5,772 nt of DNA. Source: Escherichia coli (lineage in GTDB: Bacteria > Pseudomonadota > Gammaproteobacteria > Enterobacterales > Enterobacteriaceae). The first letter of the stretch is position 1. The number at the start of each line of letters is the position of its first letter. This document shows, piece after piece, positions 1,510-5,772 of the stretch. The notes below the pieces were generated by a model. That model saw nothing but the letters and a program-made list of their open reading frames with translations, searched no databases and was not told where the DNA came from. The DNA is taken from assembly GCF_050320075.1 (NCBI RefSeq), contig NZ_CP190025.1. One strand, 5' to 3'. The position numbers and the translations under genes were made by a program.

Positions 1510-1714
1510 ACCATGAAAAATGGCAGCTTCAGTGGATTAAGTGGGGGGAATGTGGCCTGTACCATCTGGTTGCATAGGTATTCATACGGTTAAAATTTAT
1601 CAGGCGCGATCGCGGCAGTTTTTCGGGTGGTTTGTTGCCATTTTTACCTGTCTGCTGCCGTGATCGCGCTGAACGCGTTTTAGCGGTGCGTACAATATTG
1701 TCGTTATGTTAAAT
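1510..1714 (+). other. cer: cer-type multimer-resolution site (accessory sequences plus XerC/XerD core)
   Basis: Nt ~1510..1695 match my memory of ColE1 cer (…ttgcataggtattcatacgg…cgggtggtttgttgccatttttacctgtctgctgccgtgatcgcgctgaacgcgttttagcggtgcgtacaa). An ARG-box-like tgcataggtattcata (1571..1586) lies ~100 bp upstream of the core. The core is XerC arm GGTGCGTACAA (1685..1695), an 8-bp central region TATTGTCG (1696..1703) and XerD arm TTATGTTAAAT (1704..1714). Confidence 0.85.
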
Positions 1715-1794
1715 GGTTTGGATGATCCCCCCATTTTCCACATTTGGTTGTGACGATTAAGATAAACTCGTCAGAATATTTGGGTGAGGAATAA

Positions 1795-2943
1795 TCATAA
1801 TATGATGGCTAGGAAGCATATTCCAATACCTATGAGCAGGTTCAACGTCATCATTATTTTTCTAAAAATACTGTTACAATTTGTTTTTAAAAAGAATGCT
1901 GATGGGATAATGAATACTGTTATTGCTATAATTGGGGTTGATAATGCAGCAATAACTTTTATAATTTCGAAATTGGCTTCGCCTGCTATAAATGTGATAA
2001 CAGATACGACAAAAACGATTAATGTTTTGTTTTTAAATCCAAGGGATACTATTGTATCAACAACGCCTGTTAGTGTACCTGTATATGCACCGCTGGTAAT
2101 TAAAATCATGGTTAATATGGAAATGTAAGCAACGAAACTATTTTTTGTTACGTTGGCGCTATATGATAATGCATCGCTGTTAATCTCGCGCATGTTTTTT
2201 ATGTCTGAAGGTGAGAATATATTGCTTAATGAGAACACGATGAATGAGATAAATATTAAAATTAATAGTATCCCAAACATGAAAAAACGTAAATCACCGG
2301 CTGTATCTTTTTTGTTTTGAGCAAAGCGTTGTATACATGGTGAAAAATTAAAACTAAATAAAACAACTGGAAATAGAGTAAGTAAATTACTTGTACTAAT
2401 ATTTTGTATTTCTGTAGAATGTGGATGTGCTGGATGTGAATAGAAATATATAGATAAGAACAGTACAATAAGCAAAGATGGAAATGCTATTCCTGATGCG
2501 AGATGCTCTATCTTTGAATTAAAAAAGATAAAAGAAGAACCAAGGGTTGCAGAAATAATCAGTGACACAAATATTCGCTCTGAACCATTTAGACTTAGGC
2601 TAAAGCAAATAATATTTATCATTGTTGTTATGTTTATAATTGCTATTAACAGCATTGATAATAGGAATGCAATACTGATAGCATTTGCGGCTTTTTTTCC
2701 GATAAATAATATGGCAGAACTAACGTATTCTTTTTTGTCTGTAATTAAAATGAATCTATAAAATGTAAATTGCCCTAATAAAGATACCAAAGATGATAAA
2801 ATCAGTATTGTTATTGTTCCGTGAGTTCCTATGACTTTGGGGCCTACAGTCTGGGGTAGGAAAAAAATCCCTGCCCCAAATGATGTTGCAAAGAATGTTA
2901 CTGGCCATTGGATGCTATTTATCTTCATTTTTGAACCTTTCAT
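1795..2943 (-). CDS. HAAAP-family (TC 2.A.42) amino-acid permease, SdaC/TdcC-like serine/threonine transporter homologue; substrate unknown
   Basis: The long ORF encodes a polytopic hydrophobic protein. Several segments align by eye to E. coli SdaC/TdcC. FGAGIFFLPQ matches IGAGVLFLPI. PVVLFSFNFSPCIQRFAQNKKD matches PVMVFSFNHSPIISSFAVAKREE. ALSYSAN matches ILSYLAN, and LSTPIIAITVFIIPSAFFLK matches LGGPIIAMILFLMPMYAIQK. I chose the start ATG 2943..2941 because it overlaps the upstream stop as ATGA. ATG 2928 (AAAGG 7 nt upstream) is an alternative. The track's 2979 start would overlap the upstream gene by 40 nt. Confidence 0.8.
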   Translation of the reverse strand: MKGSKMKINSIQWPVTFFATSFGAGIFFLPQTVGPKVIGTHGTITILILSSLVSLLGQFTFYRFILITDKKEYVSSAILFIGKKAANAISIAFLLSMLLIAIINITTMINIICFSLSLNGSERIFVSLIISATLGSSFIFFNSKIEHLASGIAFPSLLIVLFLSIYFYSHPAHPHSTEIQNISTSNLLTLFPVVLFSFNFSPCIQRFAQNKKDTAGDLRFFMFGILLILIFISFIVFSLSNIFSPSDIKNMREINSDALSYSANVTKNSFVAYISILTMILITSGAYTGTLTGVVDTIVSLGFKNKTLIVFVVSVITFIAGEANFEIIKVIAALSTPIIAITVFIIPSAFFLKTNCNSIFRKIMMTLNLLIGIGICFLAIIL

Positions 2944-3830
2944 TTGAAGCATGATGTTCCAAAGAAAATAAGTAAACATGGAAGATTAAAATTACTATAA
3001 AAAGATGCTGCTGCTTTATAGCCATTAATTACATTAGCCATTGAGCACAATGGGAATACACCTATGTGTGATGTGTAATTGTCAAATGTCTTGTTCGATG
3101 AAATTTTATATCGAATCGAGCGAAATGTAGCTGCGTTACCTGCTGCACAAGTCGGTTTGTTATTTTTTATCACTTCAAATGATGAACCATCGACATTCAT
3201 AAAAACAGAGTTGTTTTCTTTAAAAAATGGCTTTTCTTTTTCTTTTCTTTTAATGTGTCGTTTAAAACGATCTGCCATGTTTTTTTCACTAACATAGAAA
3301 CAATTTATTTTTATATTATGCTGATTCTGTTTCTCTATAATATAGTTATTTATTACTTCTGGTATTATATAGGGTGATGTGGCTAGTTTTCTATAAATAT
3401 TACCACCATCGATATCTTCGCCATTTGATTTTTCCATGTAGAAATCATTTATTTCCATGAGGAAATCAGGTTTTATATTTAGCTCATGTGTTGATTTTAT
3501 TATGTAGTCAATGCAAAATTTAGCCGATTTTTCAACCTCATTACTAACTGAAAAACGGTCATTCAAATTCACAACAGTATGTCCACCAGATATAATAATC
3601 TTGTCTGATGTGTATTTTTCGGCTAGTTTTATTACAGTATCTATGTTGTCATCTGATATTTCTGTGTTTATTATCTCATCGATTCCTGTGCAATCTGCTT
3701 TGTATACAACAAATCTGTCTTCTTTTTTCCAGTCTTTTGTACAATTACATTTATAGCCCTCGTATATTGCTCTTTTGTTTTTTTTATAAAAATCTGGACT
3801 TTGTAAGGGCATTATTTCTAGGTCTGGCAT
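2940..3830 (-). CDS. Hypothetical 296-aa soluble protein, Lys/Asn/Ile-rich, no family recognised; first gene of the cargo operon
   Basis: ATG 3830 is preceded by AAGGAAG (3844..3838) with a 7-nt spacer, and the stop is TGA 2942..2940. An uninterrupted 296 codons in ~25-30% G+C DNA is unlikely by chance. The only motif-level resemblance I see is DKIIISGGHTVVNL (strand followed by SGG), which is PP-loop-like but lacks the Asp/Ser of SGGxDS. There is also a Cys-containing PTCAAGNAATF segment. Confidence 0.75.
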   Translation of the reverse strand: MPDLEIMPLQSPDFYKKNKRAIYEGYKCNCTKDWKKEDRFVVYKADCTGIDEIINTEISDDNIDTVIKLAEKYTSDKIIISGGHTVVNLNDRFSVSNEVEKSAKFCIDYIIKSTHELNIKPDFLMEINDFYMEKSNGEDIDGGNIYRKLATSPYIIPEVINNYIIEKQNQHNIKINCFYVSEKNMADRFKRHIKRKEKEKPFFKENNSVFMNVDGSSFEVIKNNKPTCAAGNAATFRSIRYKISSNKTFDNYTSHIGVFPLCSMANVINGYKAAASFYSNFNLPCLLIFFGTSCFK

Positions 3831-3970
3831 AGTTATGCTTCCTTTGTCACAAAGAAAATATTTTGCTAATTATGACTTATACATATCAATGATAGAGATC
3901 ATGTTAGTGTTTGATCATTGATGTCTCCTTTATTTATGTGATGCGTCTCTATTTTTTCTCTTATAGTGTC

Positions 3971-3999
3971 TTGGATGTTATTTGTTAAATATGTATTGT
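3971..3999 (+). promoter_or_regulatory. Putative sigma70 promoter for the tRNA gene
   Basis: The elements are TTGGAT (3971..3976), a 17-nt spacer and TATTGT (3994..3999). The predicted start is ~4006, which is at the first tRNA nucleotide (4007). Both hexamers match the consensus at only 4/6 in an A+T-rich context, so this call is weak. Confidence 0.3.
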
Positions 4000-4006
4000 T
4001 TTTTGT

Positions 4007-4095
4007 GGAGAGGTGGGCGAGTGGTCTAAGTCAGGGCTCTCTTGAGGCCATATGCGACAAGCGTATCGTAGGTTCGAATCCTACCCTCTCCGCCA
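4007..4095 (+). tRNA. Type II (long variable arm) tRNA, Ser-like body with anticodon CUU; isotype ambiguous
   Basis: I folded the cloverleaf by hand. The acceptor stem is 4007-4013 GGAGAGG with 4085-4091 CCTCTCC, 7 Watson-Crick pairs. U8 is at 4014. The D stem is GGC (4016-4018) with GTC (4030-4032), and the D loop carries GG at 4023-4024. The anticodon stem is GGGCT (4034-4038) with GGCCA (4046-4050), giving a G-A mismatch on top, 3 GC pairs and 1 GU pair. The anticodon loop is CTCTTGA (4039-4045), placing anticodon CTT at 4041-4043. The variable arm is 17 nt (4051-4067), with stem TATGC/GCGTA and loop GACAA. The T arm is GTAGG-TTCGAAT-CCTAC (4068-4084). The discriminator is G4092 and CCA is encoded at 4093-4095. 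Confidence 0.85.
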
Positions 4096-4156
4096 TTTTG
4101 TTGATCGTTTCCCCCACCATTTGTTGAATTGAGAGGGGTTTTGAAAAAAGATCAAA

Positions 4157-4180
4157 GGATCCTCTTGAGATCCTTTTTTT
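4157..4180 (+). terminator. Weak intrinsic-terminator-like hairpin between the tRNA and RNA II; its 3' arm overlaps the RNA II -35
   Basis: The structure is GGATC (4157-4161), a 7-nt loop, GATCC (4169-4173) and then T7 (4174-4180). The equivalent element is present upstream of RNA II in pMB1-type origins. The stem is only 5 bp, so efficiency is probably low. Confidence 0.4.
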
Positions 4181-4202: not shown

Positions 4203-4312
4203 AAACAAAAAAACCACCGCTACCAACGGTGGTTCGTTTGCCGGAATCAAGAGCTACCAACTCTTTTTCCCGAAGGTAACTGGCTTGGTGGAGCGCAGAT
4301 ACCAAATACTGT
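4203..4312 (-). ncRNA. RNAI: RNA I antisense copy-number regulator
   Basis: The bottom strand reads ACAGTATTTGGTATCTGCGCTCCACCAAGCCAGTTACCTTCGGGAAAAAGAGTTGGTAGCTCTTGATTCCGGCAAACGAACCACCGTTGGTAGCGGTGGTTTTTTTGTTTAC. This gives three hairpins and a terminal U-run, and it is fully complementary to the RNA II 5' end. Confidence 0.85.
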
Positions 4313-4348: not shown

Positions 4349-4740
4349 GAACTCTTAATATCTCAATCCACCTTGTCCAGTTACCAATGGCTGCTGCCAG
4401 TGGCGTTAAGGCGTGTCTTACCGGGTTGGACTCAAGACGATAGTTACCGGATAAGGCGCAGCGGTCGGGCTGAACGGGGGGTTCGTGCACACAGCCCAGC
4501 TTGGAGCGAACGACCTACACCGAACTGAGATACCAACAGCGTGAGCTATGAGAAAGCGCCACGCTTCCCGAAGGGAGAAAGGCGGAGAGGTATCCGGTAA
4601 GCGGCAGGGTCGGAACAGGAGAGCGCACGAGGGAGCTTCCAGGGGGAAACGCCTGGTATCTTTATAGTCCTGTCGGGTTTCGCCACCTCTGACTTGAGCG
4701 TCGATTTTTGTGATGCTCGTCAGGGGGGCGGAGCCTATGG

Positions 4741-4746
4741 AAAAAC
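4741..4746 (+). other. ori: oriV: approximate RNA II to DNA transition point (RNase H processing site)
   Basis: The conserved context is ggagcctatggAAAAAcgcc. In ColE1-type origins, leading-strand synthesis starts in or next to this A-run. The exact nucleotide cannot be determined from sequence. Confidence 0.6.
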
Positions 4747-4959
4747 GCCACCGGCGCGGCCTTTTTTCGGGGCCTCTTTTTTGCTCACATGTTTTTTCCG
4801 GCGTTATCCCCTGATTCTGTGGATAACCGTATATCCGTCTTTGAGTGAGCTGATACCGCTCGCCGCAGCCGAACGACCGAGCGCAGCGAGTCAGTGAGCG
4901 AGGAAGCGGAAGAGCGCCTGATGCGGTATTTTCTCCTTACGCATCTGTGCGGTATTTCA

Positions 4960-5389: not shown

Positions 5390-5737
5390 ATGATACCGAT
5401 GAAACGCGAGAGGATGCTCACGATACGGGTTACTGATGATGAACATGCCCGGTTACTTGAACGCTGTGAGGGTAAACAACTGGCGGTATGGATGCGGCGG
5501 GTCTGCCTGGGGGAGCCGGTTGCCCGTTCCGGGAGGCTGCCGACACTGGCACCGCCGTTACTGCGTCAGCTGGCCGCCATCGGAAATAACCTGAATCAGA
5601 CAGCGAGGAAGGTGAACAGCGGGCAGTGGTCTTCCGGTGACCGGGTTCAGGTGGTGGCCGCACTGATGGCCATCGGGGATGAGCTGCGCCGGCTGCGTCT
5701 GGCCGTCAGGGAACAGGGGGCGCGGGATGATAGTTAA
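5390..5737 (+). CDS. mbeC: MbeC relaxosome accessory protein (ribbon-helix-helix N-terminus)
   Basis: The sequence MLTIRVTDDEHARLLERCEGKQLAVWMRRVCLG…NNLNQTARKVN matches ColE1 MbeC. The stop TAA 5735..5737 overlaps the mbeA start (ATG 5727). The start is ambiguous between ATG 5390, 5399 and 5414. ColE1 MbeC as I recall it begins at the MLTIRV Met, which is 5414. Confidence 0.9.
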   Translation: MIPMKRERMLTIRVTDDEHARLLERCEGKQLAVWMRRVCLGEPVARSGRLPTLAPPLLRQLAAIGNNLNQTARKVNSGQWSSGDRVQVVAALMAIGDELRRLRLAVREQGARDDS

Positions 5738-5772
5738 ATTTCATGCCAGGGGAAAAGGTGGTGGCAGTGGTC
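5727..5772 (+). CDS. mbeA: 5' end of mbeA (first 15 codons plus 1 nt), continuing at nt 1 of the window
   Basis: The sequence atg ata gtt aaa ttt cat gcc agg gga aaa ggt ggt ggc agt ggt c translates to MIVKFHARGKGGGSG plus the first base of a Pro codon. Window nt 1-2 (cg) complete CCG, and the frame continues VDYLL…. Confidence 0.9.
   Translation, partial: MIVKFHARGKGGGSG

Follow-up and report, generated by a model that had tools for sequence, protein, structure and literature searches.

A tRNA-Ser-derived RNA and a predicted class I synthetase-fold enzyme in the cargo slot of a ColE1-type plasmid: a conserved module that may serve tRNA-dependent chemistry outside translation

Why would a small Escherichia coli plasmid devote its only accessory DNA to a tRNA gene, a protein that matches no Pfam family and a permease? 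The window analyzed here, a stretch of 5772 bp (contig NZ_CP190025.1), is a complete ColE1-type plasmid whose circular record was linearised, and it is 100% identical to E. coli pSM107_2 (NZ_CP130671.1, 5772 bp). Its cargo contains exactly three genes, for a permease, for a 296-aa protein and, in divergent orientation, for a tRNA with a long variable arm. We favor the reading, at a probability of roughly 40%, that this cargo represents, in reduced form, a conserved mobile module whose tRNA-dependent chemistry lies outside translation, with a SerRS-type RNA as the carrier. The elements in question are these:

1715..4144, low-GC cargo module, the sole accessory DNA of the plasmid
1795..2928, minus strand, permease of 377 aa (start as called by PGAP), a distant relative of the HAAAP family (TC 2.A.42)
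2940..3830, minus strand, predicted 296-aa enzyme with a class I aminoacyl-tRNA synthetase (aaRS)-like Rossmann (HUP) catalytic fold, stand-alone
4007..4095, plus strand, tRNA-Ser-derived type II tRNA of 89 nt with acceptor GGAGAGG, G73 and an encoded CCA (ARAGORN; Rfam tRNA, 46.2 bits)

The backbone has a G+C content of 0.45-0.66 in 200-nt windows, which falls to 0.25-0.37 at about 1700-4000. A cassette-free ColE1-type plasmid of Salmonella, pN18S1602-3 (L050), is homologous up to 1714 and again from 4145, and the cargo is therefore taken to be 1715-4144. A preliminary description of this DNA had proposed a three-gene, low-GC cargo on a ColE1 plasmid at 1715-4142, and composition and homology both bear this out, with the right-hand edge moved by two nucleotides. 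The module was found in 20 PLSDB plasmids and in 19 of the 5426 complete E. coli genomes, and the plasmid occurs in E. coli and Klebsiella.

Both ARAGORN and the PGAP annotation call the RNA tRNA-Lys(CUU), with CUU at positions 34-36 of a 7-nt loop, CUCUUGA. Its body, however, is type II with G73 and a variable stem of 6 bp, unlike that of E. coli tRNA-Lys, and it is a type I body with A73 that LysRS identity calls for. The nearest chromosomal tRNA of E. coli is tRNA-Ser. A covariance model of the RNA family (R1) scores the plasmid RNA at 94 bits, and its best match outside the family is a genuine Edwardsiella tRNA-Ser(UGA) at 58.8 bits. Furthermore, a 25-nt signature of T arm, acceptor and G73 occurs at 26 loci in 2.9 million viral contigs, 25 of which are bona fide tRNA-Ser genes. 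All three comparisons agree with the Ser-type assignment made in the preliminary description, and on its sequence the RNA is a tRNA-Ser derivative that appears to have been annotated as tRNA-Lys in error. A serine anticodon (NGA or GCU) is absent; the plasmid form has CUU, and the family has no anticodon in common.

In a model-fitted alignment of 15 family members, pairing reaches 99.6% in the acceptor, D and T stems and includes 5 compensatory pairs, against about 50% in controls with one strand shifted out of register. The stems of the variable arm pair in every member although their sequences differ, and neither the acceptor stem GGAGAG nor G73 varies between phyla. One of the 15 members has A1-U72, the others G1-C72. 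Relative to a 94%-identical variant from mouse E. coli (L002), the RNA has 3 changes in 89 nt, all of them in loops or from G-C to G-U.

The anticodon arm is the unconstrained part of the RNA, with loops of 4-12 nt and stems of 5-12 bp across relatives; its size is canonical in the E. coli plasmid form alone:

E. coli plasmid, 5-bp stem and 7-nt loop
Serratia, 12-bp stem and 5-nt loop
metagenome contig L036, 6-bp stem and 5-nt loop
metagenome contig L038, 8-bp stem and 5-nt loop
Edwardsiella-type, long imperfect hairpin with 4-nt loop
Veillonellaceae metagenome-assembled genome (MAG), 5-bp stem and 6-nt loop
metagenome contig L021 and Lentisphaerae MAG, 10-12-nt loops on stems of 5 bp (L021) and 8 bp (Lentisphaerae)

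The short arm of the plasmid RNA aligns as a deletion derivative of the enteric (Serratia, Edwardsiella) hairpin. Because this arm varies so freely, the RNA would not be a decoder in most lineages, and the pattern fits a molecule that is read at the acceptor, elbow and variable arm and not by the ribosomal decoding centre. Codon-specific recoding, which the preliminary description had entertained, is thus unlikely as the conserved function, since the anticodon arm is the sole part of the RNA that is not conserved. Two further ideas were discarded: a tRNA-Lys decoy for an anticodon nuclease, since the anticodon arm is not conserved, and a mere relic of an integration site, by the full covarying cloverleaf.

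The 296-aa protein belongs to a very small family: a set of 5.8 billion proteins contains 56 clusters of it, and one of 1.84 billion, in which every protein was read, contains 57 representatives; its members are about 280-340 aa long. The protein has no match in Pfam, NCBIfam, PADLOC (and so no defence-system match) or, by phmmer, the PDB, and its family profile has none in Pfam, NCBIfam or the PDB either. A Pfam MptE-like match (E 0.023) was weak and was set aside as noise. Ten distant superfamily members (P0084-P0107) likewise have no Pfam domain, and no homologue was found in the 2.9 million viral contigs. The AlphaFold2 model, built from 33 homologues, reaches a pLDDT of 91 and a pTM of 0.90 and has the Rossmann/HUP catalytic fold of class I aaRSs; CysRS and MshC are its second and third best fold matches. 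The fold of cyclodipeptide synthases (CDPSs) is not the closest match, as the model lies nearer to ArgRS, CysRS and MshC. The 296-aa protein is thus predicted to have a class I aaRS catalytic fold, which agrees with the expectation of the preliminary description that it would be related to amino acids or tRNA. Since the chain stops 7 residues past the last Rossmann strand, it has no anticodon-binding domain.

Across the superfamily, at 17-50% identity, only H84, N128/D129, R147, P157, C228, P260, C262 and C294 are invariant. In the model, H84, C228, C262 and C294 each lie at a strand end or a helix start, and we infer that this Cys3-His set forms a metal site on the active-site face, as in CysRS and MshC. 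Both open reading frames (ORFs) of the cargo are under purifying selection: against the 94% variant, dN/dS is 0.13 for the 296-aa gene and 0.14 for the permease gene, each at a dS of 0.19.

In at least 11 diverged lineages, with enzyme identities spanning 47-100%, the enzyme gene has an R1-positive tRNA-like gene (70-102 bits) no more than about 300 nt away. The pair is present on small plasmids of E. coli and Klebsiella; in Serratia, Edwardsiella and a Proteobacteria MAG; on a 194-kb Salmonella plasmid with two tandem tRNA copies and an 88-kb Enterobacter plasmid; and in the Veillonellaceae MAG, again with two copies, and the unassigned metagenome contigs L021, L036 and L038. In the Lentisphaerae MAG, the tRNA-like gene is about 3 kb from the enzyme gene, beside a gene for a metallo-β-lactamase (MBL)-fold protein. 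The tRNA-like gene is divergent in enterics and co-directional, upstream of the enzyme gene, in other lineages. The complete set of tRNA, enzyme and HAAAP-like permease recurs in Serratia, Edwardsiella, the Proteobacteria MAG and the large Salmonella and Enterobacter plasmids. Hence the co-occurrence that the preliminary description had asked about is found outside this plasmid, and its claim that the genes are one unit is sustained by the full set in other Enterobacterales and by the pair in the Veillonellaceae and Lentisphaerae MAGs.

The wider module was surveyed with a tblastn matrix over about 40 loci and with gene tables. In nearly all loci outside E. coli, the enzyme is joined by an MBL-fold hydrolase (236-281 aa); it is a generic MBL with weak RNase Z-like similarity at its N-terminus, and in the PDB it comes closest to 2p4z and 3h3e, both uncharacterised. 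Having no MBL, the module of the E. coli plasmid is a reduced form; a related 43-kb plasmid (enzyme 84% identical) has only the enzyme and a permease. Which transporter is present depends on the lineage: enterics have a HAAAP-like one, the Veillonellaceae, Cetobacterium and hydrothermal-vent forms an EamA protein, and the Lentisphaerae MAG an MFS protein. In 4 lineages, radical-SAM genes adjoin the module. In alphaproteobacterial MAGs, the order is NUDIX-enzyme-MBL, and no tRNA-like gene was found within 6-8 kb with the search filters off. The same invariant residues are retained where the enzyme has no tRNA-like gene nearby (alphaproteobacterial MAGs, Cetobacterium plasmids, L047).

Several single loci add to this picture. 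In the Salmonella plasmid pRSE21 (L048, 194 kb), the tandem tRNA-like copies occupy 4560-4662 and 4709-4811, upstream of the enzyme, and the weaker one scores 69.7 bits. The Veillonellaceae MAG (L004 12426-12860) has about 360 bp duplicated before an operon for a radical-SAM/SPASM protein, an MFS transporter and an Asp/Glu racemase; the block comprises promoter, tRNA-like gene, terminator-like hairpin, ribosome-binding site and the first ~26 enzyme codons, and a 43-aa remnant ORF is left. In Cetobacterium (L023/L024), an unrelated Rep3/relaxase/MobC plasmid of about 6.9 kb carries EamA-MBL-enzyme as its sole cargo, a parallel to the E. coli plasmid; a tRNA-like gene was not detected there. Downstream of enzyme and MBL in the alphaproteobacterial MAG L018 (9914-15811) are genes for a radical-SAM protein, a GT4 glycosyltransferase, a PIG-L deacetylase, GDPD and a class II aaRS-like protein (tRNA-synt_2b + HGTP_anticodon); this block, GT4 and PIG-L included, is absent from the sister locus L022. 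Two further loci (L045 2116-2623, L046 6001-6508) show a radical-SAM gene, then a weak (27% identity) enzyme-like fragment without an intact ORF, then an 83-nt tRNA-like gene of type II (R1, 36.9 bits) whose 'anticodon' loop has 4 nt, and they may be a remote version of the tRNA-enzyme pairing. The HAAAP-like permease looks broken in Pectobacterium parvum (L003 7026-8069), where the tRNA-like gene is also absent, and in Edwardsiella (L013 6944-8058), with split gene calls or a two-piece tblastn match; this suggests that the module is decaying in some hosts.

How might such a module work? In the reading that we favor, the tRNA-Ser derivative would have kept the parts that SerRS reads, namely the acceptor stem, G73, the D/T elbow and the long variable arm, and would have been freed from decoding. 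The SerRS of the host, which is blind to the anticodon, would load this carrier RNA with serine. The 296-aa metal-binding enzyme would then dock on the acceptor end and either transfer or convert the esterified residue. The co-transcribed permease would supply a co-substrate or export the product, and in most other hosts the MBL-fold hydrolase would complete the module, perhaps by releasing or maturing that product. We prefer this reading because the SerRS recognition set is kept, because the signature is shared with real tRNA-Ser genes and because enzyme-only lineages exist; the same invariant residues in those lineages fit an enzyme that could use housekeeping Ser-tRNA as well. The fold, the Ser architecture, the linkage, the loose anticodon arm and the purifying selection come from the comparisons above, while the charging enzyme, the action of the enzyme on the RNA and the product are what we infer from them. 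A more specific version, which we put forward only tentatively and consider somewhat doubtful, is a new class of mobile pathway in which a non-decoding tRNA-Ser-derived carrier, a metal-dependent minimal class I-fold enzyme, MBL release and a transporter would together make a small molecule such as a non-proteinogenic amino acid or an aminoacyl antimetabolite.

A number of observations weigh against the favored reading. In about half of the lineages, the 6-8-kb flanks searched around the enzyme contain no tRNA-like gene, and the E. coli plasmid copy itself has no MBL partner. The D-stem pair 11:24 is G:U or G:C, and G:U, not C:G, in the plasmid RNA, and C11:G24 is part of the tRNA-Ser identity of E. 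coli. A metagenome contig with the plasmid (L029, 1-120 and 5806-5922) has an insertion, which we take to be IS1 from its ends, in the T arm of the tRNA; this amounts to a natural tRNA knock-out, in which the plasmid persists although its tRNA is no longer intact. The likeness of the 296-aa protein to aaRSs is one of fold, without sequence homology to any aaRS family, and hhalign of its family against E. coli CysRS and ArgRS gives probabilities below 1%. The HxGH form of the HIGH motif is absent: after the strand 78-81 there is only GGH[TY] with the invariant H84, which may be a metal ligand instead of a HIGH remnant. Nor is a KMSKS loop conserved, as the consensus C-terminus is FFGKSCF with a variable Lys, and GTSCFK in the plasmid protein. 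The direction of transport is ambiguous, since HAAAP proteins are usually importers and the EamA and MFS partners usually exporters.

The enzyme could instead be the RNA's own minimal class I aaRS, reading the acceptor stem and perhaps, given the Cys3-His set, attaching a thiol-bearing amino acid, with the charged RNA then used outside translation or hydrolysed by the MBL partner. We regard this as unlikely, though it deserves serious attention: the class I catalytic fold ends exactly at the would-be KMSKS loop, the invariant H84, C228, C262 and C294 are reminiscent of the Zn site in CysRS and MshC, GGAGAG and G73 do not vary between phyla, and there is a precedent in CysRS* without an anticodon-binding domain and its dedicated selC* tRNA (PMC5389517). 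Nevertheless, an acceptor-stem reader would have no use for the full SerRS recognition set with its long variable arm, which would cause double charging, and the acceptor/T signature also occurs on genuine tRNA-Ser genes, so that the pair would not be orthogonal. HIGH and KMSKS are not conserved, and nothing in the three-gene plasmid module would consume the charged RNA. Less probable again is an MshC/BshC-like ATP-dependent amino-acid ligase with a non-RNA acceptor, to which the tRNA-like gene would be an accessory for processing or stability, for regulation, or as a tRNA-Ser integration relic. The lineages without a nearby tRNA-like gene would suit such a ligase, as would the MshA-/MshB-like GT4 and PIG-L genes a few genes downstream in one alphaproteobacterial locus and the promoter-tRNA-like-leader block copied before an unrelated radical-SAM-MFS-racemase operon in the Veillonellaceae MAG. 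However, GT4 and PIG-L are missing from the sister locus, a relic would not retain a fully compensated cloverleaf, in either orientation, adjacent to the same gene across phyla, and what is conserved in the RNA is the acceptor, T and variable arms, not a leader-like segment.

Recoding or mistranslation by the plasmid form alone, which would place a residue other than lysine at AAG if the RNA were charged by SerRS or by the enzyme and accepted by EF-Tu, appears very improbable to us. The loop CUCUUGA does have the canonical size, U33 and a purine at 37, is the same in the 94% variant, and SerRS ignores anticodons (PMC5389517). Yet the loop is kept in no relative, the relatives have no anticodon in common, the arm resembles a deletion product of the long Serratia/Edwardsiella hairpin, and the anticodon stem is weak (G27-A43 mismatch, U31-G39). 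A proteome-wide change from Lys to Ser from a high-copy plasmid should also be costly, yet the plasmid is found in both E. coli and Klebsiella. Against recoding, too, the T-stem pairs U50-A64 and A51-U63 are of a type linked to weak EF-Tu binding. As for the null case, in which three unrelated genes from a low-GC donor hitch-hiked together, their common low G+C would permit it, but sequence comparison across loci leads us to reject it: other Enterobacterales also have the set of tRNA, enzyme and permease, distant phyla also have the pair of tRNA and enzyme, both ORFs are under purifying selection, and the Cetobacterium Rep3/Mob plasmid has independently acquired EamA-MBL-enzyme as its sole cargo.

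One of the closest known systems is that of Deltaproteobacteria, in which selC* tRNA-Cys is paired with a CysRS* that has no anticodon-binding domain (Mukai et al., PMC5389517). There, as here, a Sec/Ser-shaped tRNA with a long variable arm is linked to a class I synthetase-type enzyme without an anticodon-binding domain, which must depend on the acceptor stem. CysRS*, however, is recognisable by sequence, and its partner tRNA, with U73 and a functional anticodon (GCA or UCA), does decode, whereas the plasmid enzyme has no sequence likeness to any aaRS and its RNA has G73 and, in most lineages, a degenerate anticodon arm. CDPSs, the IleRS-like SbzA and the AlaRS-like AcmF (reviewed in PMC12945691) are aaRS-fold enzymes with aminoacyl-tRNA as the donor, and similarly redeploy a class I (or class II) synthetase fold for small molecules, which makes them precedents for the favored reading. 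In contrast to the present case, they borrow housekeeping tRNAs, and none in that review has a tRNA gene of its own. CDPSs also differ in that the plasmid enzyme is nearer in fold to ArgRS, CysRS and MshC and its family has an invariant Cys3-His set.

Special tRNAs with non-standard fates are known as well. tRNA-Sec is charged by SerRS, and its serine is converted by SelA or by PSTK and SepSecS; SepRS/SepCysS belongs here too. Like the plasmid RNA, tRNA-Sec is a SerRS-type tRNA with a long variable arm and G73, a scaffold for chemistry on the esterified residue, but it has 8/5 or 9/4 acceptor/T geometry and a UCA anticodon and feeds the ribosome, whereas the RNA described here is 7/5 with no conserved anticodon, and the plasmid enzyme is unrelated to SelA, PSTK and SepCysS. 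The non-proteinogenic tRNA-Gly of Staphylococcus (FemXAB) and the tRNA-Other of Bacillus cereus are kept for non-ribosomal use and escape translation; unlike the present RNA, they have normal anticodon arms and are not encoded beside the enzymes that use them, which have GNAT/Fem and not aaRS folds. MshC and BshC act on sugars, GluQ-RS (YadB) modifies an anticodon base, and all three are detectable by sequence, whereas the 296-aa family is not. A full-text literature search returned no description of the cassette, its protein accessions or its RNA. An aaRS-fold, tRNA-linked enzyme with its own carrier tRNA may form a new category once its chemistry is known.

The permease is related to HAAAP proteins at the superfamily level only. 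It matches TIGR00814 over its full length with an E-value of 1.2e-23 and 84 bits, against a cut-off of 526, and matches no Pfam family and not the TdcC equivalog; it is 40% identical to its Serratia counterpart. The preliminary description had called it a serine-family importer coupled to the enzyme gene by an ATGA stop/start overlap. A distant HAAAP relative it is, and one from which Ser/Thr specificity cannot be read; nor is such an importer a fixed part of the unit, the transporter being EamA or MFS elsewhere. Likewise, in the plasmid sequence an alternative ATG at 2943 does overlap the upstream stop codon, yet the overlap is not conserved: in the mouse E. coli variant the ATGA start reads MKG*, a stop after 3 codons. 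The conserved start is thus the ATG at 2928, which is 11 nt past the stop of the upstream gene and also the call of PGAP.

The enzyme operon and the tRNA gene diverge from a shared intergenic region with putative control elements:

3831..4006, divergent control region between the enzyme operon and the tRNA gene
3889-3860, minus strand, promoter-like TTGATA-18-CAAAAT for the enzyme operon (promoter scan)
3886-3893 and 3914-3921, inverted repeat TCAATGAT/ATCATTGA (sequence reading)
3971-3999, weak TTGGAT-17-TATTGT just upstream of the tRNA (promoter scan)

In the chromosomal enterics (L020, L007, L013), a CRP-like TGTGA-N6-TCACA lies about 110-130 nt upstream of the enzyme start (columns 84-100 of intergenic alignment A3). 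This site, which is perfect in the Proteobacteria MAG, hints at catabolite control of the chromosomal enteric versions; the plasmid has the inverted repeat in its place. A T-box-like or otherwise conserved leader between tRNA and gene was considered and dropped, as the alignment holds no conserved RNA element and only the CRP-like site in chromosomal enterics. Sub-threshold Rfam matches to SNORD81 (3852-3930) and Plastid-psbl-rps4 (4049-4092) were dismissed as chance or tRNA-arm matches.

The backbone is that of a ColE1-type plasmid, with an RNAI/RNAII origin, Rom, Mob genes and a cer site identified from Rfam, the ORFs, PGAP names and the Xer pattern:

1685..1714, plus strand, cer-type XerCD recombination site, GGTGCGTACAA-TATTGTCG-TTATGTTAAAT (pattern match)
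4154..4176, plus strand, terminator-like hairpin with T-run, in the backbone immediately beyond the cargo (terminator scan)
4205-4310, minus strand, RNAI (Rfam, 66.6 bits)
backbone, ORFs for Rom, MobC and MobA/B/D (ORF list and PGAP names)

The site at 1685-1714 we take to resemble the cer/dif arms. The left edge of the cargo abuts it, and the slot begins precisely at the outer end of the XerD-type arm; no flanking repeats of note were found around the cargo. Plasmids with the same flanks hold different cargo in the slot, for example a DUF1508 gene or a C39 peptidase gene, which suggests that the cargo of the ColE1 lineage is swapped at cer. ColE1 colicin plasmids share this backbone (RNAI/RNAII origin, rom, mob, cer) and the one exchangeable slot beside cer; here, in contrast, the slot has no colicin, immunity and lysis set, and the ORF list, Pfam and NCBIfam revealed no bacteriocin-like gene in the window. 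The hairpin at 4154..4176 presumably overlaps the promoter region of RNA II, and transcription of the tRNA probably ends at it. The relaxase gene (mbeA/mobA) spans the start of the record (1-1508 and 5727-5772) and reads as a 486-aa GTG ORF in the window, unannotated in the RefSeq record; its split is an artefact of linearisation, with no truncation.

Taken together, these results bear on how tRNAs and synthetase folds can be put to other uses. If the favored reading is correct, this would be, to our knowledge, the first tRNA-dependent enzyme family to travel with its own tRNA gene, and one whose tRNA is visibly freed from decoding; a natural tRNA would have become a dedicated acyl carrier on small mobilisable plasmids of E. 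coli, Klebsiella and Cetobacterium, and the reach of the class I synthetase fold would extend to a 296-aa metalloenzyme that is an orphan by sequence. The family also exposes a systematic mis-annotation, in which one RNA family is labelled tRNA-Lys, tRNA-Val, tRNA-Thr or 'tRNA-???'. The E. coli plasmid offers a three-gene model for the charging, the carrier function and the product of such a system, and the enzyme and its RNA may prove to be a natural acceptor-stem-specific pair for genetic-code engineering.

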